A stretch of 64,000 nucleotides of DNA from Clostridiales bacterium (GTDB lineage: Bacteria; Bacillota; Clostridia; Lachnospirales; Lachnospiraceae): contig JAAYHD010000007.1 in NCBI GenBank assembly GCA_012735495.1, positions 6,247 to 70,246 on the forward strand. The letters run 5' to 3'. The notes beneath the pieces were generated by a model that was not told the origin of the DNA, did no database searches, and saw only the letters and a program-made list of their open reading frames with translations. Shown here piece after piece: positions 9,004 through 45,481 of the stretch. Numbering within the stretch: the first letter of the stretch is position 1; each line of letters begins with the position of its first letter. The translations under genes were made by a program, and so were the position numbers.

Positions 9004-10560
9004 ATGGGTCAATTTTTTGACAACACGACAACAGTAATCTTGCTGATTTGTATTACAGCTGCAGCATTACTGTTGTTGTTATTGCTTGTTTTTATAAGGA
9101 TAAGCAGGCTGAAAAAGAAGCTTGACGAGGCATACGAGGAGAATCATGCCGTAACTGCGGAGTACCACAGGCTGAAATCGCTGTACCAGGAAGCCGCAGA
9201 TTCATACAAAAAGCTGAGCGCTCAGTATGACGAGCTTTATAAAAGCAAGGAAAGCATAAAGAAAATCGCATATACAGATCCATTGACGGAGCTGCCCAAC
9301 CGCATAGCATTCATGGAAATGCTGGATAATATCATGCTGACGCTGCGCAGTGACGAAATAATCGGTATTATGGATATAGATCTTGACAATTTCAAGAATA
9401 TTAATGATACCCTTGGACACTCATACGGAGATGAGCTGCTGATTGATGTTACCCACAGATTGAAGCAAGTAATGGATGAGAACGATTATCTGGCAAGGAT
9501 AGGCGGGGACGAGTTCGTAATCCTTACACAGAATTTATGCGATACCGCATCATTCGAGGAAAAAATCAAGAAGGTCAGAAATGTATTCACATTCCCGTTT
9601 GAGCTGCTGTCCAAGGAGTATTTTATCTCGGTCAGCATAGGAGTCGCTTTTGCTCCAAAGGACGGCAAATCGGCTCAAACCATTGTTAAAAACGTGGATA
9701 CCGCCATGTATGTGGCCAAGGCTAACGGGAAAAATACATACGCGTATTATGACGCTTCGTTGAATCAGAAGCTTACCGATAAAATAGAGCTCCAGTCGGA
9801 GCTTAGAAAAGCCATAGAAAAGAATGAATTTGTCCTGCTCTACCAGGCACAGATGGATTTGATGAATAAAAAGGTGCTGGGATTTGAAGCGCTGATACGG
9901 TGGAATCATCCCACCAAGGGCATGCTTTATCCCAGTGATTTCATATACCTTGCTGAGGAATCCGGCCTTATCGTACCGATAGGGAAATGGGCGCTGGAGA
10001 CCGCGTGCCTTCAGCTTAAGGAATGGACCGACATGGGATATGAAAATATCAGCATGGCGGTTAACCTTTCCGCAAGGCAGTTCAAGGACAAGGATTTTGT
10101 CCAGATGGTGCTTGAGGTAATCGAAAAAACCGGAGCGGATCCTTCGAAGCTTGAGCTGGAGATAACGGAATCGATCGCGTTGGAGGATTTGGACTATACG
10201 ATATCGACAATAGAGCAGTTAAAAGCCATAGGAGTAAGATTCTCTCTGGACGATTTCGGTACGGGGTATTCGTCGATGAGCTACCTGAAGAAGCTTCCGG
10301 TTAGCAACCTGAAGATAGACAAGAGTTTCCTGGATACCGTTATGGATGATGTATGCGACCAAAAAATAATTCAGGCCATCATAACCCTGGCAAGAAATCT
10401 GGATCTTAATATTATCGCTGAAGGTGTCGAAAGAACCGAACAGGAGCAGTTCCTGCAGGAATCCAACTGCAACATGGCGCAGGGCTTCTTATACAGCAAA
10501 CCGCTGCCCAGGGAAATGGCCGCAGAATATTTAAAGAGCGTGAACCGCCGGGAGATGTAA
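9004..10560 (+). CDS. membrane-anchored GGDEF-EAL protein (diguanylate cyclase / c-di-GMP phosphodiesterase)
   Basis: There is an N-terminal TM helix and a coiled-coil-like stretch. The GGDEF motif is RIGGDEF. The EAL-domain motifs are FEALIRW, ELEITE, DDFGTGYSS, KIDKSF and AEGVE. Confidence 0.9.
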   Translation: MGQFFDNTTTVILLICITAAALLLLLLLVFIRISRLKKKLDEAYEENHAVTAEYHRLKSLYQEAADSYKKLSAQYDELYKSKESIKKIAYTDPLTELPNRIAFMEMLDNIMLTLRSDEIIGIMDIDLDNFKNINDTLGHSYGDELLIDVTHRLKQVMDENDYLARIGGDEFVILTQNLCDTASFEEKIKKVRNVFTFPFELLSKEYFISVSIGVAFAPKDGKSAQTIVKNVDTAMYVAKANGKNTYAYYDASLNQKLTDKIELQSELRKAIEKNEFVLLYQAQMDLMNKKVLGFEALIRWNHPTKGMLYPSDFIYLAEESGLIVPIGKWALETACLQLKEWTDMGYENISMAVNLSARQFKDKDFVQMVLEVIEKTGADPSKLELEITESIALEDLDYTISTIEQLKAIGVRFSLDDFGTGYSSMSYLKKLPVSNLKIDKSFLDTVMDDVCDQKIIQAIITLARNLDLNIIAEGVERTEQEQFLQESNCNMAQGFLYSKPLPREMAAEYLKSVNRREM

Positions 10561-20246: not shown

Positions 20247-21038
20247 ATGGGGAAAATATTGAAAAGAAAAGGGCTGTTTATACCGGTGATTTTGGTATTA
20301 CTCATCGGTTTGGTTTCCTGCAGAAACGGAAGCAGGGACGATGGCGATTATTCCGGTAAGGGCAACGGGCAGCATTTTTTTATTGCTGATGTTATAGAGG
20401 CAAATGGCGGGCTGCTTATTGCCCCGGACAAGGACAGTTCCGAGGCATTGTCTGCCGACAGGATTATGGCTTCGGTGGGAGAAGCCGAGATTACCGACAG
20501 CAAGGGCAATGCGGTCAGCCTGGATATGCTTGAGCCCGGAGACAGGATAAAAGTTACCTATGACGGCTTGATAGCGGAATCATATCCTGCGCAGATTAAG
20601 GCCTCCAGGATTGAGGTTTTGGGGCGCAATAATGTTATAGACGGTTTCCTTTCCCTTATTGACGACATATACCAGGCGGACAGCGGGCTGAACGGCAATA
20701 TTTCAATTATTGCCTTCGATACGTCCGAATGGGCAATGCTGACTGAAGTCGAAACAGAAATCATATTGGACACAGTCGGTGAAAAATACGGGTTTGAGGT
20801 GGTGGTCGGCACCTTTGACGAGTTGGCCGGGCAGGGCCTGATAGACAAGGAAAACCTGTTTTTTGAGGATGGTATTCTTATTACAATTGCCGATATTGAA
20901 ATAAATAAGGATAAGGATGTAATAGAGTGCTCAATCGAAAAATGGAGAAGCGGACTGGGTGCCGTTGGCTGGGATGCCAAGGCTAAGTTAAAAAAGGGTT
21001 CATGGCGGATAATACGGAAGAATATGTGGATTAGCTGA
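20247..21038 (+). CDS. lipoprotein of unknown function (N-terminal DUF3221-like domain ending ...ESYPAQI)
   Basis: AGGAGGAG RBS. The signal peptide has the lipobox LIGLVSC. There are no catalytic motifs I recognise. Confidence 0.6.
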   Translation: MGKILKRKGLFIPVILVLLIGLVSCRNGSRDDGDYSGKGNGQHFFIADVIEANGGLLIAPDKDSSEALSADRIMASVGEAEITDSKGNAVSLDMLEPGDRIKVTYDGLIAESYPAQIKASRIEVLGRNNVIDGFLSLIDDIYQADSGLNGNISIIAFDTSEWAMLTEVETEIILDTVGEKYGFEVVVGTFDELAGQGLIDKENLFFEDGILITIADIEINKDKDVIECSIEKWRSGLGAVGWDAKAKLKKGSWRIIRKNMWIS

Positions 21039-21073
21039 ACCAAAGAATATTGAAGTGAAGTGAGGGGTGTTTC

Positions 21074-22306
21074 ATGAAGAAGCAAACGTTTTTAATATGT
21101 ATTCTTCTATTCACGGTCTTTTTGACTGCCTGTGGCATTTTACCAGGCAGTAATTCAAAAAGAGGGGAATATGACTTGCAAAAGGTCAGTCATGATGTAA
21201 CTACAGGCAACAAGACATTTGCATTTGACATCTTTAAGAAACTTAACGAAGAGGATGCGAATGAGAACGTGTTCATATCGCCGATTAGCATTTCACAGGC
21301 TCTTGCAATGGCATACAACGGAGCGGATACAACCACAAAGCAGGCCATGGAGCAGGTGCTGGGGTTTTCAGAAACGGAACGGGATATAGTTAATGAAAGC
21401 TATTTTAACCTTATGAACTATATAGAATCGGCTGATAACAAGATTGAGCTGGCCAATGGTAATTCCATATGGGTAAGAAAAGGGGTTAATGTAAAAAGCA
21501 AATTTATCCGTACCAATGAAAATTATTTCAATGCCGAGGTAAACACCCTGGATTTTTCCGGCGACAATGCTGTTGACACGATAAACAAATGGATAGATAA
21601 GGCCACGAAAGGCATGATAACCGGAATACTCAATCCGCCAATTCCTGATGATGCTGTCATGTATCTAATAAATGCGATATATTTTAAGGGCAAGTGGAGC
21701 GATCAGTTTAACCCGAAGTATACTTATGATGGCCATTTTGCAGCCGTAGACGGAAGTTTACAGAAAGTCAAGATGATGAACAAGCCTAAAGCTTCGGTGA
21801 AATATGCCGGGACGGATGAGTACAAAGCGATTAGGCTTCCCTATGGGGAAGGGAAGATTGCAATGTATGTAATTTTGCCTTCGGAAGGCACGAATATAAA
21901 TGATTTCATTGCTGGCATGACAGCCGAGAAATGGGATGAAATAAGAGGATGCCTTAAGGATACAGAAGATGTCTTTGTTAAAATCCCTAGATTCAAGCTG
22001 GAATATGGCACCAAGGATTTAGTTAAAAGCCTGACTTCCCTTGGTATGGGAGAAGCTTTCGGCGAAAATGCGGATTTTTCAGTAATAACGGATGATGTGT
22101 ATATAAGCCGTGTTCTGCACAAAGCGATAATTGAGGTCAACGAGGAAGGCAGCGAGGCATCGGCTGCAACGATTGTCGAGTTTATAATGGGAGCCATGAG
22201 GGACCCTGTAACATTTATTGCCGACCGGCCTTTTATATTTATAATAAATGAAGATGTCACAGATACGATTATATTTATGGGCAAGGCCGGACGGATTAAT
22301 GAATGA
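21074..22306 (+). CDS. serpin-family protease inhibitor, predicted lipoprotein
   Basis: The lipobox is FLTAC. The serpin core has NVFISPISISQALAMAYNGA. The hinge and reactive-centre loop are EEGSEASAATIVEFIMGAMRDP, followed by FIADRPFIFIINE. Confidence 0.85.
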   Translation: MKKQTFLICILLFTVFLTACGILPGSNSKRGEYDLQKVSHDVTTGNKTFAFDIFKKLNEEDANENVFISPISISQALAMAYNGADTTTKQAMEQVLGFSETERDIVNESYFNLMNYIESADNKIELANGNSIWVRKGVNVKSKFIRTNENYFNAEVNTLDFSGDNAVDTINKWIDKATKGMITGILNPPIPDDAVMYLINAIYFKGKWSDQFNPKYTYDGHFAAVDGSLQKVKMMNKPKASVKYAGTDEYKAIRLPYGEGKIAMYVILPSEGTNINDFIAGMTAEKWDEIRGCLKDTEDVFVKIPRFKLEYGTKDLVKSLTSLGMGEAFGENADFSVITDDVYISRVLHKAIIEVNEEGSEASAATIVEFIMGAMRDPVTFIADRPFIFIINEDVTDTIIFMGKAGRINE

Positions 22307-22474
22307 AATTATGTAATATTATGGCGAATGGTTGCGTGCCTGTCCGCCATTTTGATATTTACATCACGGGCTAAAATATGGTATCCTTTAACTAAAGGCA
22401 AAGTATTCAATTAATGCGGTTGCAAAACCGCATAGGGATACGGCGGATATGAAAATAACGGAATGGAGTTGTAT

Positions 22475-23230
22475 ATGACGGATACCAAGCCCACCGTACA
22501 AAAAACACTGAGGCTTAGAAAGTTCCTTTTTACAGCGGATATTGCCATTATACTTTTTTTATGCATTTATTTGATTTTGCAGCATATGAATTCAAATAAG
22601 GACTTGCCCAAGGCGCTCAAACTCGAGAATAACGAGGTGCTTATAGATTATGCCATAGGCGGGGCCTTTGCTTACACACTGACCAACAAAGATGGAAACA
22701 GGGAATACGGCAATTTTTTCGTGGTGTTTGAGAAGGCCGATGATGAGTGGCAAAGGGTTTATGAAAATGATTTCAAGAACCTGATGCCCTGGAAGGTCGA
22801 AACGGCCGACATAGACGGCGATGGTATTCCGGAAATCCTGACAGCGCTTCGAAAAAAGACGCCTTACGACCGGGAAATTAAGAACCGGATGTTTATATTT
22901 AACTATGAGGACAATAAGCTTATAAGAAAATGGACCGGTTCGCAGATTGCGGGAATCTGGAGGGATTTTTATGTGATGGATTTTCTGTCTCCGCCGGGAT
23001 ACGAGCTGTTATTCGTCGAGCAGACGGATGAGGGCAAGGAACGGGTAAGCGTCTATTCATGGTTTGACTTCGGGTTTCATAGATTGGCTTACAGCGACGG
23101 ATATGAGATTATTCAAAACATATCCATGGTTAGCGAAAACCGGCTTAAGATTACATATCGCGAAGGCAAAAAGGAATACAACGTCCAATTGGAGACGGTT
23201 AACGGGAAGCTGGTACCGAAACAGGATTAA
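22475..23230 (+). CDS. signal-anchored protein of unknown function with one FG-GAP/VCBS-like DIDGDGIPE motif
   Basis: There is a single N-terminal TM segment, FLFTADIAIILFLCIYLILQ. GGAG lies upstream of the ATG at 22475, which is the 5th codon of the track ORF. Confidence 0.5.
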   Translation: MTDTKPTVQKTLRLRKFLFTADIAIILFLCIYLILQHMNSNKDLPKALKLENNEVLIDYAIGGAFAYTLTNKDGNREYGNFFVVFEKADDEWQRVYENDFKNLMPWKVETADIDGDGIPEILTALRKKTPYDREIKNRMFIFNYEDNKLIRKWTGSQIAGIWRDFYVMDFLSPPGYELLFVEQTDEGKERVSVYSWFDFGFHRLAYSDGYEIIQNISMVSENRLKITYREGKKEYNVQLETVNGKLVPKQD

Positions 23231-23278
23231 CTAAGCATAGCTATGATATATTAGCAGGTTCTCAAGGAGGTAAGCGTA

Positions 23279-25633
23279 ATGAAGAAGCTGATATCGGTCA
23301 TCCTGTGCATATGTCTTGTGGCAGCAGGATGTTCCGGGAGAAAGGGCGATAAGCAGGAAGATCATACATCGGGAAACGACAATATTACGCCTTTTGGGCA
23401 GCAGGATAATACCGTTTCCGATGATGATGCGGATGATACGGCATCCGCAGATGCTCCGGATGATCCGGCTGCTGTGGATATCTCAAATCCGCTTAAGCTG
23501 AATGAGGAATGGGCGGCCGTAACGCTTGCGGGGGCCAACCGGCCGGATTATATGCTGCCCAATTATATGGCGGATGTGGAGCCGTATACAATCAGCAAGG
23601 ATTTGTCCAACATTGAAAATATTCAATATTTTCACGGATTTACTAATGAACAGAAGGAAATGCTTGTTAAGAACGGGTTTGTTGTCATTCCTGCCGGAAG
23701 GACCAAGATGAGCTATATATATGACAATAACGAGTACCTCAAGGTGCCGAACTTCGTTACGACCGATTCGGTCCTTCATCTTTATCACCAGTTCTATGAC
23801 AAATCATTGATGTATATTGAAACCAACTTCTTATATAATTGCCTGGATACCTTGACAAGCCAGATGCTTGAGAAGTCCATCCGCCTGGCCGGTTATCTGG
23901 ACAGCGATAAGCTAAAGGAACTGCAGGAAAAGAATATTGTTTATTTTCTTGTGGCCAGGATGCTTATGGTTAACAATCCGGATATGGATGCGGATGTTAA
24001 TGAGGAACTGAAAAGCATAGCCAGGAGTGAATATGAACTGATAGACAAGGCGGAGGGTTACCAGGAATCACCGCTGTTTGAGTTTGATCTTGATTACTCA
24101 CAGTTTACCGTAAGGGGCCACTATACAAGAAGCGAGGAGTTAGGGCGTTTCTTCAAGGTAATGATGTGGTTCGGGCTGGCCCCCATTCCCTTGATGGACA
24201 GCGGTGGAAACATCGATTATGACAATGTGCTGCAGGCACTATTGATTGCATACACCACCTTCATGGATACGGACTATATCTGTGATGCGGAGCTTTGGAA
24301 TAATATCTACCAGCCCACAAAGCAGTTTGTAGGGGCTTCCGATGACATTAACGTGTTTAGGATGAACGGGTTAAGGCTTGAGGTATTCGGTGAGGCTAAC
24401 AATCCGAATATATTTGATGATGAAGAGTATTATGACAAGCTCATACAAGGGGTTAAGGATCTGCCTTCGCCGAAAATCATGGCAAAGTATATAAGCGACA
24501 CCGCCTTGGCGGATGACCCGATTACGACTCCTGCTGGTAAGCAGTTCCGTTATATGGGACAGCGCTATATCATGGACAGCTATATTATGCAGGAACTGAT
24601 TAATCCTATAGACAGGCCCATGCCTACAGCCCTTGATGTAATGGGCGTGCTTGGAAGCAAAACAGCCGAGGATTTGCTGTTCAATTATTACAAGCCGCAG
24701 GAGAAGTGGCCTGAATATACCGAAAAATACAACGGGCTAAAGGAAGAAGTGGCCGGTTACGATACGGATGTCTGGGGAGAGAACCTGTATAACGGATGGC
24801 TGTGGGCAATTCAGGAGAACCTTACGGAATTCGATGAGGATTCCGGCATGCCGTTCTTCATGACCACTGAAGCATGGAGGTACAAGTCACTGAATGCGGC
24901 TCTTGGAAGCTATACGGAGCTTAAGCATGACACAATCCTGTACGGCAAGCAGGCTGCGGCCGAGGGCGGTAACGGCGTTATATTCAAGAATCATTACCAC
25001 TATGTTGAGCCCAATGTGGAGCTGTATTACAAGCTTCTGTACCTGACCGATTATACAATTAAGGTCCTGAGGGAAAGAAACATGCTGGAACGGAGCCTGG
25101 AAAACGGCGCGGAAAGCTATAAGGAGCTTCTTGAGTTATTGATAAACTGCAGCATAAAGGAATTAAGGAATGAGATGCTGTCGGAGGAAGAGTACAACAG
25201 GCTGCTGTACTACGGAGCCGCCATGGAATACATCACCGATTGCTTTACATTGGCGACGGGAGATTATGAATCGATTGACATCTCGGATATGTTGGCAGCC
25301 GATATTGCCACCAATCCCGGTGCTTACCTGACACTGGGCACGGGATACTTTGACCAGATATTCGTTGTAATACCTGTGGACGGCAAGCTGTACCTGTCCA
25401 GGGGCGCGGTTTACAGCACTTATGAATTTATCAGCGATAAGCGCCTGACTGATGAGGAATGGTGGGCGCTCAACGGTATTACAATCATTGAGGATGAGTA
25501 TGTGACCTATGTCGAGAAAACGGAACCGTCCGGAAACCTACCCGAGCAGCCCTGGTGGGTGAAGAAATTCAAATCATTCGAGAATACTGTGGAAATAGAC
25601 AAGATTGATGTCGAATGGGAATATGCATACTAA
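23279..25633 (+). CDS. large lipoprotein, DUF3160-like
   Basis: AAGGAGG RBS and lipobox LVAAGCSG, followed by an acidic linker. Motifs such as FVTTDSVLHLYHQFYD and FTVRGHYTRSEELGRFF resemble DUF3160 from memory. There is no HExxH or other catalytic signature. Confidence 0.55.
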   Translation: MKKLISVILCICLVAAGCSGRKGDKQEDHTSGNDNITPFGQQDNTVSDDDADDTASADAPDDPAAVDISNPLKLNEEWAAVTLAGANRPDYMLPNYMADVEPYTISKDLSNIENIQYFHGFTNEQKEMLVKNGFVVIPAGRTKMSYIYDNNEYLKVPNFVTTDSVLHLYHQFYDKSLMYIETNFLYNCLDTLTSQMLEKSIRLAGYLDSDKLKELQEKNIVYFLVARMLMVNNPDMDADVNEELKSIARSEYELIDKAEGYQESPLFEFDLDYSQFTVRGHYTRSEELGRFFKVMMWFGLAPIPLMDSGGNIDYDNVLQALLIAYTTFMDTDYICDAELWNNIYQPTKQFVGASDDINVFRMNGLRLEVFGEANNPNIFDDEEYYDKLIQGVKDLPSPKIMAKYISDTALADDPITTPAGKQFRYMGQRYIMDSYIMQELINPIDRPMPTALDVMGVLGSKTAEDLLFNYYKPQEKWPEYTEKYNGLKEEVAGYDTDVWGENLYNGWLWAIQENLTEFDEDSGMPFFMTTEAWRYKSLNAALGSYTELKHDTILYGKQAAAEGGNGVIFKNHYHYVEPNVELYYKLLYLTDYTIKVLRERNMLERSLENGAESYKELLELLINCSIKELRNEMLSEEEYNRLLYYGAAMEYITDCFTLATGDYESIDISDMLAADIATNPGAYLTLGTGYFDQIFVVIPVDGKLYLSRGAVYSTYEFISDKRLTDEEWWALNGITIIEDEYVTYVEKTEPSGNLPEQPWWVKKFKSFENTVEIDKIDVEWEYAY

Positions 25634-25634
25634 A

Positions 25635-25707
25635 TGCACCTGACTGGATTCGAACCAGCGGCCTTTCGCTCCGGAGGCGAACGCTCTATCCACTGAGCTA
25701 CAGGTGC
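25635..25707 (-). tRNA. tRNA-Arg (anticodon CCG), 73 nt, with no encoded CCA
   Basis: The reverse complement is GCACCTG-TA-GCTC-AGTGGATA-GAGC-G-TTCGC-CTCCGGA-GCGAA-AGGCC-GCTGG-TTCGAAT-CCAGT-CAGGTGC-A. This folds into a full cloverleaf with anticodon-loop C-T-CCG-G-A. Confidence 0.92.
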
Positions 25708-41789: not shown

Positions 41790-41984
41790 ATGGAACCTAA
41801 AAAGCTGTATCGCTCTTCTACGAACAGGATGATTTGCGGCGTATGCCAGGGCATAGCCGAGTATCTTAATATGGATCCTACGGTAGTGAGGCTGCTGTGG
41901 GTTGTATTGAGTGTATTTTGCGGTGCCGGTATACTTGGTGTACTTGTATATATAGCTGCGGCAATTATTATGCCTGTAAGATAA
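41790..41984 (+). CDS. PspC-domain membrane protein
   Basis: 64 aa. LYRSSTNRMICGVCQGIAEYLNMDPTVVRLLWV is the PspC signature, followed by one TM helix. Confidence 0.75.
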   Translation: MEPKKLYRSSTNRMICGVCQGIAEYLNMDPTVVRLLWVVLSVFCGAGILGVLVYIAAAIIMPVR

Positions 41985-42015: not shown

Positions 42016-42056
42016 AGAATCGTTCCTGTCCTGATGACAGGGACGATTCTTTATTT
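42016..42056. terminator. bidirectional terminator between the convergent pspC-like and cheY genes
   Basis: AGAATCGTTCCTGTC-CTGAT-GACAGGGACGATTCT forms a 15-bp stem with one G-U pair. Both flanks are T-rich. Confidence 0.65.
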
Positions 42057-42075: not shown

Positions 42076-42441
42076 TTATTCTTGATTTGCTACCTTGTCG
42101 ATAATTTCTATTATCTGCTCAGCTTCGAAGGGCTTGGTCAGGAATTCAACCGCGCCATGCTTAACGGCGTCAACCATCTTTGTTTTCTGACCTGCAGCCG
42201 TTACCATGACAACCTTGGCATTCTTGTCGACTTCCATGATTCTTTTCAAGGCTTCCAATCCGTCCATAACCGGCATGGTAATATCCATGGTAATTATGTC
42301 CGGATTAAGCTCGATATATTTATCAACCGATTCTTCACCGTTTGCTGCTTCACCTATCACAGTATGGCCATTTGACTCAAGAATGTTTTTCAGTATTCTT
42401 CTTGAGGTTTTTGAATCATCAACAATAAGAATTCTTGCCAT
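42076..42441 (-). CDS. cheY: stand-alone CheY-like response regulator (receiver domain only)
   Basis: 121 aa. ILIVDDS, the phospho-acceptor context DIITMDITMP, VVMVTA and the conserved Lys in LTKPF are all present. Its GGGAGGG RBS overlaps the stop codon of the upstream gene. Confidence 0.85.
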   Translation of the reverse strand: MARILIVDDSKTSRRILKNILESNGHTVIGEAANGEESVDKYIELNPDIITMDITMPVMDGLEALKRIMEVDKNAKVVMVTAAGQKTKMVDAVKHGAVEFLTKPFEAEQIIEIIDKVANQE

Positions 42442-42454
42442 TTCAATACCCTCC

Positions 42455-43342
42455 CTATATTATTTCAACTTTTTGGTCGACAGCAACCAGCAGGTCTGTC
42501 TGCTTGCCATTTATTATGATGGGAACAACATATATGTTTCCATCACATTTAAGGGCTTTGTTCTGAGCATAATTAGGAGGTGTCATATCGATATGTATGT
42601 CTTCCCTGCTCAGCTTTGAGGCAAACAACCCGTTGCTGCAGTTTATGAATTCGCATACTGAGTCAAAGGCATCTTCATCCATAGCCTCAAATTCCATCTT
42701 TGCAAACGGGCTGGCTATACTCAGCAGCGCTTCGTCCTCACCGGCAAATGCAACGAATATGTTATGCAGCCCGACCAGCTGCTGATAAGCCAATGAAGGG
42801 AAGGAGTATTCCCTGACGGTGTAAGATTTCTTCAGCATAATGTTGCTGTTGGCAAATCTTACAATATTCCTTATAGCCAATGAGATGCATTCACCTGCAA
42901 ACGGAACACTTGTTTTTACGAATAACGGAATTATACGGTCGATATCACCGGATTTGAGAGCCACTAAATCTGCGTCGGAAAATCCATTGTCCTTCTTGAA
43001 TTCTTCAAGGGCTTCCTCAATTTGTTCCAAGGTCATTATATTTTTCTCGGTAAGAGCCTGTACAAATTTAATATAAGGATTTCCTTGAAGCTTTAATAAG
43101 TATTCTACATCTTCCCTTTTTAAATATCCCTTCTCTATGGCAATATCGCCAAAGCGTCTGTCCTCATGCTTTTGAAGCTCGTTCAGTTCTTCGGCTTGCT
43201 TGGATGTAAGCAGCTTTTCGGCTACGGTAATCAAGCCCAGTTTTATATGAGAAGTATTCTGCTGCCTTAAAACATCCATTAATAGCGAATGAGATATTTT
43301 CCCTTTTTTCAATAAGTAATCCCCAAAGTATAGACCGAACAT
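42455..43342 (-). CDS. CheX-type CheY-P phosphatase domain fused to an N-terminal triple MshEN/T2SSE_N-like repeat
   Basis: AAAGGAGAAG RBS lies before the ATG at 43342. The track ORF extends further upstream through an AT-rich, non-coding-looking stretch. The C-terminus has DSVCEFINCSNGLFASKLSREDIHIDMTPP, matching the CheC/CheX signature D/S-x3-E-x2-N-x20-PP. The N-terminus has three 24-aa units (aa 5-28, 34-57, 63-86) separated by 5-aa spacers. Confidence 0.7.
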   Translation of the reverse strand: MFGLYFGDYLLKKGKISHSLLMDVLRQQNTSHIKLGLITVAEKLLTSKQAEELNELQKHEDRRFGDIAIEKGYLKREDVEYLLKLQGNPYIKFVQALTEKNIMTLEQIEEALEEFKKDNGFSDADLVALKSGDIDRIIPLFVKTSVPFAGECISLAIRNIVRFANSNIMLKKSYTVREYSFPSLAYQQLVGLHNIFVAFAGEDEALLSIASPFAKMEFEAMDEDAFDSVCEFINCSNGLFASKLSREDIHIDMTPPNYAQNKALKCDGNIYVVPIIINGKQTDLLVAVDQKVEII

Positions 43343-43708
43343 GATGCTTCTCCTTTCTCCTATTAGCGCAGTATAGTATTGGATGATGCAAAACGTGCCC
43401 TGTGTATGTATAATATTTTGATATATATAATATACAACAAAATTAATAAAAAAGACAGTATTTATTAAAAAAAATAGCAAAAATTTGATTTAATGGCGGG
43501 ATTATGCACAAATAATTGTAAATATGTGTATTATTTTTAGCCAACATAGGGTATACATCTTTGTTTTTATATACAAAAAGGACATATTGTGCAAAAATAA
43601 CTAAATATGCATACAAATGAACAATTATGCATCCGGGAAAATTTTGATGACATTTATGCTTCTCTGTGATAAATTATTGAGTAAGCTAAAATGATATTGG
43701 AGGTAATC

Positions 43709-45481
43709 ATGAAGAAGTTGATTGACTTATTGTCGGAGGATGTGAAAAAGGCTTTTGTATTCAAGGGATACGATGAAAAGTACGGTATTGTGACACTGTC
43801 GAACAGGCCGGATTTATGCCAATACCAGTGCAATGGCGCTTTGGCCGCCGCCAAGGAATACAGGAAGGCGCCGATTATTATTGCCCAGGAGATAGCCGAG
43901 GTATTGCGGGGCAGCGGAAAGATAAAGGATGTTGCCGCCTTTAATCCCGGTTTTATTAATATAAACATAAGCGACAAGTTCCTGGCTGAATACATCAATG
44001 ACATGAGAAAAGCCGAAGATTTCGGATGTGAGAAGGAGCCCGCTCCTAAAAAGATTATCATTGATTACGGCGGGCCGAACATCGCAAAGCCCCTCCATGT
44101 AGGGCATATGCGTTCGGCAATAATTGGTGAAAGCCTAAAGCGCATATTTAAATTCATGGGAAATGAAGCAATAGGCGATGTACATTTAGGTGACTGGGGA
44201 ACTCCCATGGGACTTGTTATTGCCGAGTTAAAGAGAAGGAAACCGGACCTGGTATACTTTGATGAAAGCTATACGGGTGAATATCCCGAGGAGGCGCCGT
44301 TTACCATATCCGAGCTTGAGGAGATCTATCCTGCAGCCAGCGCCTACTCCAAGGAAAACCCGGAGTTTCTTGAAGAGGCGAAGAGAATTACCTATCTCAT
44401 GCAAAACGGCCACAGGGGATATATGGCGCTTTGGAAGCATATGCAGGATGTATCCGTAACAGACTTAAAGAAAATTTATGACAGCATGAACGTCTCCTTT
44501 GAGCTGTGGAAGAAGGAAAGCGATGCGCAGCCGTATGTTAATGACATGGTTGATTATTTGAAAAAGAACGGTTATGCGCACATAAGCGACGGTGCCCTGA
44601 TTGTCGACGTCAAGGAGGAAACCGATACCAAGGAAATACCGCCGTTTATGGTGTTGAAGTCCGACGGAGCCACATTGTACAGCACGACGGATCTTGCTAC
44701 CATTGTTGAGAGGATGAAGCTGTTTAACCCCGATCGGATACTATATATCACCGACAAGAGGCAGGAGCTTCATTTTGAGCTTCTGTTCAGGTGTGCAAGG
44801 AAGGCAAAGATCGTTAATGAGAATACAGAGCTTCAGTTCATAGGCTTCGGAACCATGAACGGCAAAGACGGCAAACCTTTCAAGACCAGGGAAGGCGGAG
44901 TAATGCGCCTGGAATACCTGATTAAGATGGTTACCGACGAAGTATACCGCAAGATCATGGAAAACCGTGATATGGACGAGAACGAAGCCAGGGACATTGC
45001 TGCGAAGGTGGGTTTGGCTGCGTTGAAATACGGTGATCTGTCCAACCAGGCATCCAAGGATTATATATTTGATTTGGAGCGCTTTACGTCCTTCGAAGGC
45101 AATACCGGGCCATACATTCTCTATACCATTGTTAGGATAAAATCCATACTGGAGAAGTTCAAAGAAACCGGAAAAAGCATAAATCCCGGTGCGGATATAC
45201 TGCCGCCGTGCACGCCCTTGGAGAGGGATCTTATGCTGCAGATTACAAGGTTCAGTGACATGATGCATCTGGCCTATGAGGAGATGGCTCCCCACAGGAT
45301 ATGCCAGTATATTTACGATCTGGCGGACAAGTTCAGCAGCTTTTATCACGAAACCAAGATAATATCCGATGAAAACAGCGAAGAAAGGCAGTCTTCCTTA
45401 ATAAGCATGATTTCGCTTATACAGGAATTGCTTAAGACATGCATAAACCTGCTGGGATTTGAAGCTCCTGAAAGGATGTAA
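43709..45481 (+). CDS. argS: arginine--tRNA ligase
   Basis: GGAGGT RBS. The class I HIGH motif is PNIAKPLHVGHMRS. The C-terminal anticodon-binding domain and overall length fit ArgS. Confidence 0.95.
   Translation: MKKLIDLLSEDVKKAFVFKGYDEKYGIVTLSNRPDLCQYQCNGALAAAKEYRKAPIIIAQEIAEVLRGSGKIKDVAAFNPGFININISDKFLAEYINDMRKAEDFGCEKEPAPKKIIIDYGGPNIAKPLHVGHMRSAIIGESLKRIFKFMGNEAIGDVHLGDWGTPMGLVIAELKRRKPDLVYFDESYTGEYPEEAPFTISELEEIYPAASAYSKENPEFLEEAKRITYLMQNGHRGYMALWKHMQDVSVTDLKKIYDSMNVSFELWKKESDAQPYVNDMVDYLKKNGYAHISDGALIVDVKEETDTKEIPPFMVLKSDGATLYSTTDLATIVERMKLFNPDRILYITDKRQELHFELLFRCARKAKIVNENTELQFIGFGTMNGKDGKPFKTREGGVMRLEYLIKMVTDEVYRKIMENRDMDENEARDIAAKVGLAALKYGDLSNQASKDYIFDLERFTSFEGNTGPYILYTIVRIKSILEKFKETGKSINPGADILPPCTPLERDLMLQITRFSDMMHLAYEEMAPHRICQYIYDLADKFSSFYHETKIISDENSEERQSSLISMISLIQELLKTCINLLGFEAPERM

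Follow-up and report, generated by a model that had tools for sequence, protein, structure and literature searches.

The window analysed here is a 64,000-nucleotide (nt) stretch of the genome of a Clostridiales bacterium of the Lachnospiraceae (assembly GCA_012735495.1, contig JAAYHD010000007.1, positions 6,247 to 70,246), and its reverse strand carries the two adjacent genes that concern us. The first encodes a 295-amino-acid (aa) protein in which four repeat units of the type that binds cyclic di-GMP (c-di-GMP) in MshEN domains precede a CheX phosphatase domain, and the second a stand-alone 121-aa CheY (Table 1). A preliminary description of this DNA, made from its letters, had placed these two open reading frames (ORFs) 13 nt apart, and the ORF map and the sequence agree: the phosphatase gene runs from an ATG at 43342, with an AAGGAG Shine-Dalgarno sequence 7 nt upstream, to a TAG at 42455-42457, and the ATG of cheY follows at 42441. 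A TTG at 43480, which would give a product of 341 aa, was rejected as the start; it has no Shine-Dalgarno sequence, the extension is A+T-rich, and it is implausible because the homologues are almost all 295 aa long (656 close homologues were found, mostly of this length). The pair is bounded by divergent argS (43691-45481), by convergent pspC (41790-41984) and by a hairpin between cheY and pspC, and it therefore forms an independent bicistron; the hairpin is likely a bidirectional terminator closing the operon. In the presumed promoter region, sigma-70-like matches are weak only and no Rfam element is found; when the whole window was scanned with Rfam, neither a c-di-GMP riboswitch nor any other leader turned up near the operon.

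Table 1. Features of the cheX-cheY locus (coordinates are those of the window)
Feature	Coordinates	Strand	Evidence
(MshEN_N)2-CheX gene, 295-aa product, with its stop codon	42455..43342	(-)	ORF map
Unit 1, aa 5-28, YFGDYLLKKGKISHSLLMDVLRQQ, degenerate MshEN-type	43259..43330	(-)	AlphaFold2 helices 2-12, 18-28
Unit 2, aa 34-57, KLGLITVAEKLLTSKQAEELNELQ, near-canonical, on MshE motif I	43172..43243	(-)	Profile alignment to 5HTL
Unit 3, aa 63-86, RFGDIAIEKGYLKREDVEYLLKLQ, canonical c-di-GMP-type motif, on MshE motif II	43085..43156	(-)	Family conservation, profile alignment
Unit 4, aa 92-115, KFVQALTEKNIMTLEQIEEALEEF, degenerate	42998..43069	(-)	AlphaFold2 helices 89-99, 105-119
Conserved two-helix linker, aa 116-148, including ALKSGDIDRIIP	42899..42997	(-)	AlphaFold2 helices 123-131, 134-141; conservation
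CheX phosphatase domain, aa 149-295	42458..42898	(-)	Foldseek, Pfam
Catalytic E231-F-I-N234	42641..42652	(-)	Ungapped alignment to T. maritima CheX E-L-G-N
Shine-Dalgarno GGAGGG of cheY, abutting the phosphatase TAG stop	42449..42454	(-)	Sequence
cheY, 121-aa single-domain receiver	42076..42441	(-)	ORF map, Pfam Response_reg
15-bp G+C-rich hairpin between convergent cheY and pspC	42016..42050	unassigned	Flagged on the + strand only
Intergenic region between the divergent argS and phosphatase genes, presumed promoter region of the bicistron	43343..43690		ORF map

The C-terminal half of the 295-aa protein is a CheX-family domain with an intact catalytic site, predicted to dephosphorylate phosphorylated CheY (CheY-P). 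It passes the Pfam cutoff for CheX (PF13690, 36.3 bits against 27, covering aa 188-266), and phmmer aligns aa 196-280 to Thermotoga maritima CheX ungapped, with P255-P256 falling on the PP of the latter. The active site thus reads D227-x3-E231-x2-N234...P255-P256, the string that had been picked out in the preliminary description, with the T. maritima spacing it had assigned to it. Active sites of the E-x2-N type occur twice in CheC and FliY and once in CheX; the protein contains a single E-x2-N, and on this count it is CheX-like rather than CheC-like. With the AlphaFold2 model of the whole protein (pLDDT 89.3, pTM 0.82) as query, Foldseek retrieves T. maritima CheX (1squ/1xko, E 7e-9, target-normalised TM 0.74-0.76) and other CheX structures, including 3hzh, the Borrelia burgdorferi CheX of the CheX-CheY3 complex. 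Conservation extends deep into the family: in a set of 132 relatives taken from 50%-identity clusters and sharing at most 50% identity, E231 is kept in 127 (about 96%) and N234 in 126 (95%).

The N-terminal half consists of MshEN_N-type repeats, for which binding of c-di-GMP is plausible. The AlphaFold2 model resolves it into four helix-turn-helix units, eight helices in all, each unit being 24 residues long and 5 residues apart from the next. Three of these units had been described before, exactly as we find them; the fourth (aa 92-115), which follows unit 3 after another 5-residue spacer, had been overlooked, and the total is therefore four units, that is, two MshEN_N domains. The whole protein matches NCBIfam NF053729, 'c-di-GMP_motif, MshE-related', with 54.6 bits against a cutoff of 38 (E 7e-15), and more weakly the models of EpsG and NfrB, known bearers of MshEN. 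Pfam T2SSE_N (PF05157), the model suggested earlier for recognising the domain, includes the MshEN_C subdomain and gives no match even at E <= 10, in line with the class that Wang et al. (2016; PMC5013675), who defined the MshEN motif, describe as 'MshEN_N only, no T2SSE_N1'. A profile built from the first 122 residues of 38 diverse relatives and searched against the PDB hits Thermus thermophilus PilF (E 5e-10) and the N-domain of Vibrio cholerae MshE (5HTL, E 5.6e-6), the latter ungapped, with query positions 29-87 on MshE 4-62; all its other matches at E <= 0.1 are N-domains of type IV pilus ATPases (PilB).

The four units are not equivalent. Unit 3 has all six key residues (R, L, G, L, L, Q), as do 110/132 relatives, and in 97/132 this unit satisfies the relaxed motif of Wang et al. 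at every position. Unit 2 has five of the six, with Asn54 for Leu and in addition Ala50; its K/R-L-G and terminal Gln are conserved. Position 17 is A/V and position 21 is N/H (the latter in 112/127 relatives), both specific to the family. Five of six are also present in unit 1, where Tyr replaces Arg; a hydrophobic residue takes this first position across the family, and no relative (0/132) fits the relaxed motif perfectly there. Unit 4, with four of six, lacks the Gly at position 3 and ends in Y/F at position 24. Substitutions of the kind listed for XpsE-type loss of binding (PMC5013675) affect units 2 and 3 only at L29, which is N54 here.

Some near-invariant positions stand out as specific to the family: R162 (130/132) and Q187 (126/132) in the CheX domain, the N/H at aa 54, Q95 (position 4 of unit 4), and ALKSGDIDRIIP (aa 128-139) of the linker. 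These residues could form an interface between sensor and phosphatase, or a contact with CheY. In several family members the MshEN_N units repeatedly give Pfam matches to DUF4388 that stay below threshold (17-24 bits, cutoff 25), which hints at a distant relationship between DUF4388 and these repeats.

By sequence, the 121-aa protein is a true CheY-type receiver. It scores 108 bits with Pfam Response_reg (PF00072), its acceptor set (D8, D9, D53, T81, K103) is complete and accompanied by the aromatic switch F100, and its seven top relatives in the PDB are all CheY proteins, at E values from 1.7e-39 (Pyrococcus horikoshii) to 1.5e-34 (T. maritima CheY gives 2.5e-36), with Spo0F-type receivers following at about 1e-18. 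It misses the cutoffs of the NCBIfam CheY equivalogs CheY_Halo (123 against 200 bits) and PRK10610 (69 against 189), both of which are lineage-specific models.

That this CheY is the dedicated partner of the phosphatase, as had been proposed, is now strongly backed. We scanned species-representative genomes with a narrower alignment of the family, the most diverse one having no usable conserved stretch, and found relatives in at least 497 species-level genomes, largely of Lachnospiraceae. The best 80 carriers belong to Lachnospiraceae and related Clostridia, and include the genera Herbinix, Mobilitalea, Anaerotaenia, Kineothrix, Roseburia, Eubacterium and Lachnoclostridium. In 81 of the 82 evaluable loci the phosphatase gene is followed on its own strand, after 9-107 nt, by an orthologous receiver gene; most close relatives have gaps of 9-16 nt, and in distant ones the gap reaches up to 107 nt. 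The pairing persists down to 43% identity of the phosphatase, while the flanking genes change, argS and pspC being kept as neighbours in closer relatives only. The two proteins also occur as a single (MshEN_N)2-CheX-REC chain in nine of the ten long representatives tested (399-440 aa, from 50%-identity clusters). These fusions measure 421-440 aa and come from nine separate clusters (P0147, P0156, P0159, P0163, P0170, P0171, P0179, P0181 and P0225). Conserved pairing and natural fusions together make a functional coupling of the two genes well supported.

Genomic context provides a connection with c-di-GMP. At 12 of the 80 loci, all from distant Lachnospiraceae, the cheX-cheY pair is divergently adjoined by a gene for a dCache-HAMP-GGDEF-EAL sensor enzyme of about 810 aa, located about 200-250 nt upstream of the match (loci L046, L047, L053, L056, L058, L061, L066, L075, L076, L078, L080 and L081). 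We regard this adjacency as moderate, independent evidence for a connection with c-di-GMP. Because the 12 loci fall in two different outer contexts, it further suggests that in their subclade cheX, cheY and the GGDEF-EAL gene form a conserved three-gene c-di-GMP module. In the window itself the GGDEF-EAL gene reported at 9004-10560 is real and lies 32 kb from the pair, and the 52 ORFs scanned with Pfam include no further che, fla or mcp gene, as the preliminary description had also stated. That description had gone on to propose a self-contained signalling module. This does not hold: a kinase or phosphodonor and an output partner are absent from the surroundings of the pair in all 83 loci, and neither a kinase nor an output partner is encoded in the window.

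The architecture is not new in itself. '(MshEN_N)2 - CheX' is listed in Supplementary Table 4 of Wang et al. (2016; PMC5013675) with Glov_2742 of Geobacter lovleyi as the example, the distribution 'Deltaproteobacteria, Firmicutes' and no experimental reference, and our locus belongs to this catalogued and uncharacterised class. The earlier statement that no characterised example was known stands, in that we found no experimental study of an MshEN-CheX protein in the literature searched. Glov_2742 (Fig. 3c of PMC5013675) has the domain order of our protein and likewise four units of 24 residues spaced by 5. The departures from the motif correspond as well, with A/H in unit 2 (positions 17 and 21) and an aromatic residue closing unit 4 (position 24); our unit 4 corresponds to the second half of its domain 2 as aligned by Wang et al. 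However, deltaproteobacterial relatives of the Glov_2742 type are shorter (180-227 aa) and have no CheY gene directly downstream, whereas the Lachnospiraceae branch is paired with one. The two branches therefore differ in organisation, with obligate pairing as a trait of the clostridial one. In the three deltaproteobacterial loci inspected (L084, L085 and L086) no receiver gene follows, although at one of them a REC gene lies 440 nt upstream.

The better studied relatives each cover part of this protein. CheX of T. maritima (1XKO/1SQU) and of B. burgdorferi (3HZH, with CheY3) have the same fold and a single E-x2-N followed by PP, but they are about 155 aa long and lack a sensory N-terminal extension. 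Units 2 and 3 align ungapped with the 53-residue c-di-GMP site of the MshE N-domain (5HTL) and of T. thermophilus PilF GSPII; unlike these proteins, ours has no MshEN_C / T2SSE_N1 and no ATPase, carries Ala and Asn in place of Leu25 and Leu29, and has two additional, degenerate units. An MshEN_N inserted in a CheA of Aeromonas veronii, which binds c-di-GMP with a dissociation constant (Kd) of 2.6 µM (PMC5013675, Supplementary Table 6; the CheX fusion was not measured there), is likewise grafted on an enzyme of the chemotaxis phosphorelay, with the sensor on the kinase in that case and on the phosphatase in ours. In V. cholerae, the PilZ protein PlzC controls the activity of CheX toward CheY in trans and independently of c-di-GMP binding (PMC12799141). 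There, as is proposed here, a c-di-GMP receptor protein controls a CheX, whereas the putative sensor of our protein is fused in cis.

Elsewhere in the window, the region 20247-25633 encodes a bacterial serpin (gene at 21074-22306; 379 bits with Pfam Serpin), flanked by genes for proteins with DUF3221 and with DUF3160, the latter of 784 aa, and a tRNA gene lies beside this region at 25635-25707(-).

We propose, with a probability of roughly 0.55, that the 295-aa protein is a c-di-GMP-responsive CheX, with units 2 and 3 as the binding site, and that it controls a dedicated CheY fed by a CheA encoded elsewhere. In this mechanism c-di-GMP would bind the site formed by units 2 and 3, aligned with motifs I and II of MshE, and binding would move the helical module, along with its conserved linker, with respect to the CheX domain. 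Such a movement would switch the rate at which E231 and N234 dephosphorylate the partner CheY-P, the CheY itself having been phosphorylated by the distant CheA. CheY could then act on the flagellar switch or as a phosphate sink, and either route would couple the level of c-di-GMP to swimming behaviour. Our data show the identity of the domains, the intact catalytic site, the four units, the obligate pairing of the genes and the fusions; we infer that the ligand binds, in which direction it regulates, and what the phosphodonor and the output are. The link to motility is one by homology only, since no che or fla gene lies near any locus.

Several of our results weigh against such a mechanism, and most of them bear on the sensor. 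Unit 3 alone has the canonical motif. Units 1 and 4 depart from it as degenerate copies, and unit 2 has Ala/Val and Asn/His at the positions of Leu25 and Leu29 of MshE, a protein in which single Leu-to-Ala changes lower affinity 10-36-fold (PMC5013675). Each two-unit pair taken alone scores 31-35 bits, under the NCBIfam cutoff, and, although the pattern of helices fits a four-helix bundle such as that of 5HTL, Foldseek finds no significant MshEN match in the PDB for the 122-aa N-terminal model, the best relevant one, PilF GSPIIA, being insignificant (E 4.7). Domains of this type that do not bind are documented, XpsE of Xanthomonas among them, and a footnote to Supplementary Table 4 of Wang et al. 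warns that some of the proteins listed lack a recognisable binding motif. With three of the four units deviating from the motif, the repeats might have lost nucleotide binding and act as helical scaffolding, through which the protein dimerises or docks to another one, in which case CheX and CheY would be a ligand-independent pair. This is the main rival explanation, and we hold it to be unlikely, if a serious contender. A scaffold does not readily account for the K/R-L/F-G and terminal Gln of units 2 and 3 being conserved in over 85% of the relatives with 30-50% identity, residues that include both Gly found essential for binding by the mutagenesis of MshE (PMC5013675), or for the GGDEF-EAL neighbours of the 12 loci. 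The Asn/His at position 21 of unit 2, which is His in Glov_2742 as well, might instead re-tune one half-site toward another ligand, such as 3'3'-cGAMP, which MshEN binds weakly, or another cyclic dinucleotide. We find this quite improbable, given that unit 3 keeps the backbone-amide Gly-Asp/Glu elements that read guanine O6/N7 and that the neighbouring enzymes are GGDEF-EAL proteins and not CD-NTases.

The remaining points concern the phosphorelay. No cheA or fliM gene is found in the window or at any locus. It is moreover unusual for a phosphatase to be fused with the protein that it dephosphorylates, and the single-chain proteins fit equally well a REC domain that serves as a regulatory input: its phosphorylation would control a CheX that acts on the main chemotaxis CheY elsewhere in the genome. 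Regulatory arrangements of the REC-CheX type are conceivable. We nevertheless consider this improbable, as the REC is closely related to motor-type CheY proteins, including T. maritima CheY, the natural substrate of CheX, and as the B. burgdorferi complex (3hzh) has CheX acting directly on such a CheY.

If c-di-GMP does gate the phosphatase, the protein would provide a direct, cis-acting route from c-di-GMP to the turnover of CheY-P, of which we found no experimental example in the literature searched. A bolder and rather doubtful extension is that Lachnospiraceae, including Roseburia and Eubacterium of the gut, would control swimming by c-di-GMP through a dedicated branch of the phosphorelay and not through a PilZ brake, with a ligand-gated CheX setting the lifetime of a private CheY that acts as a tunable phosphate sink or motor effector. 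The MshEN site would then be asymmetric, one half-site being canonical and the other carrying a conserved Asn/His that may change its affinity or specificity. The family is widespread, reaching abundant gut commensals among the genomes in which we detected it, and its conserved gene pair and natural fusions make it a clean and simple two-protein system for the tuning of a chemotaxis phosphatase by a second messenger.

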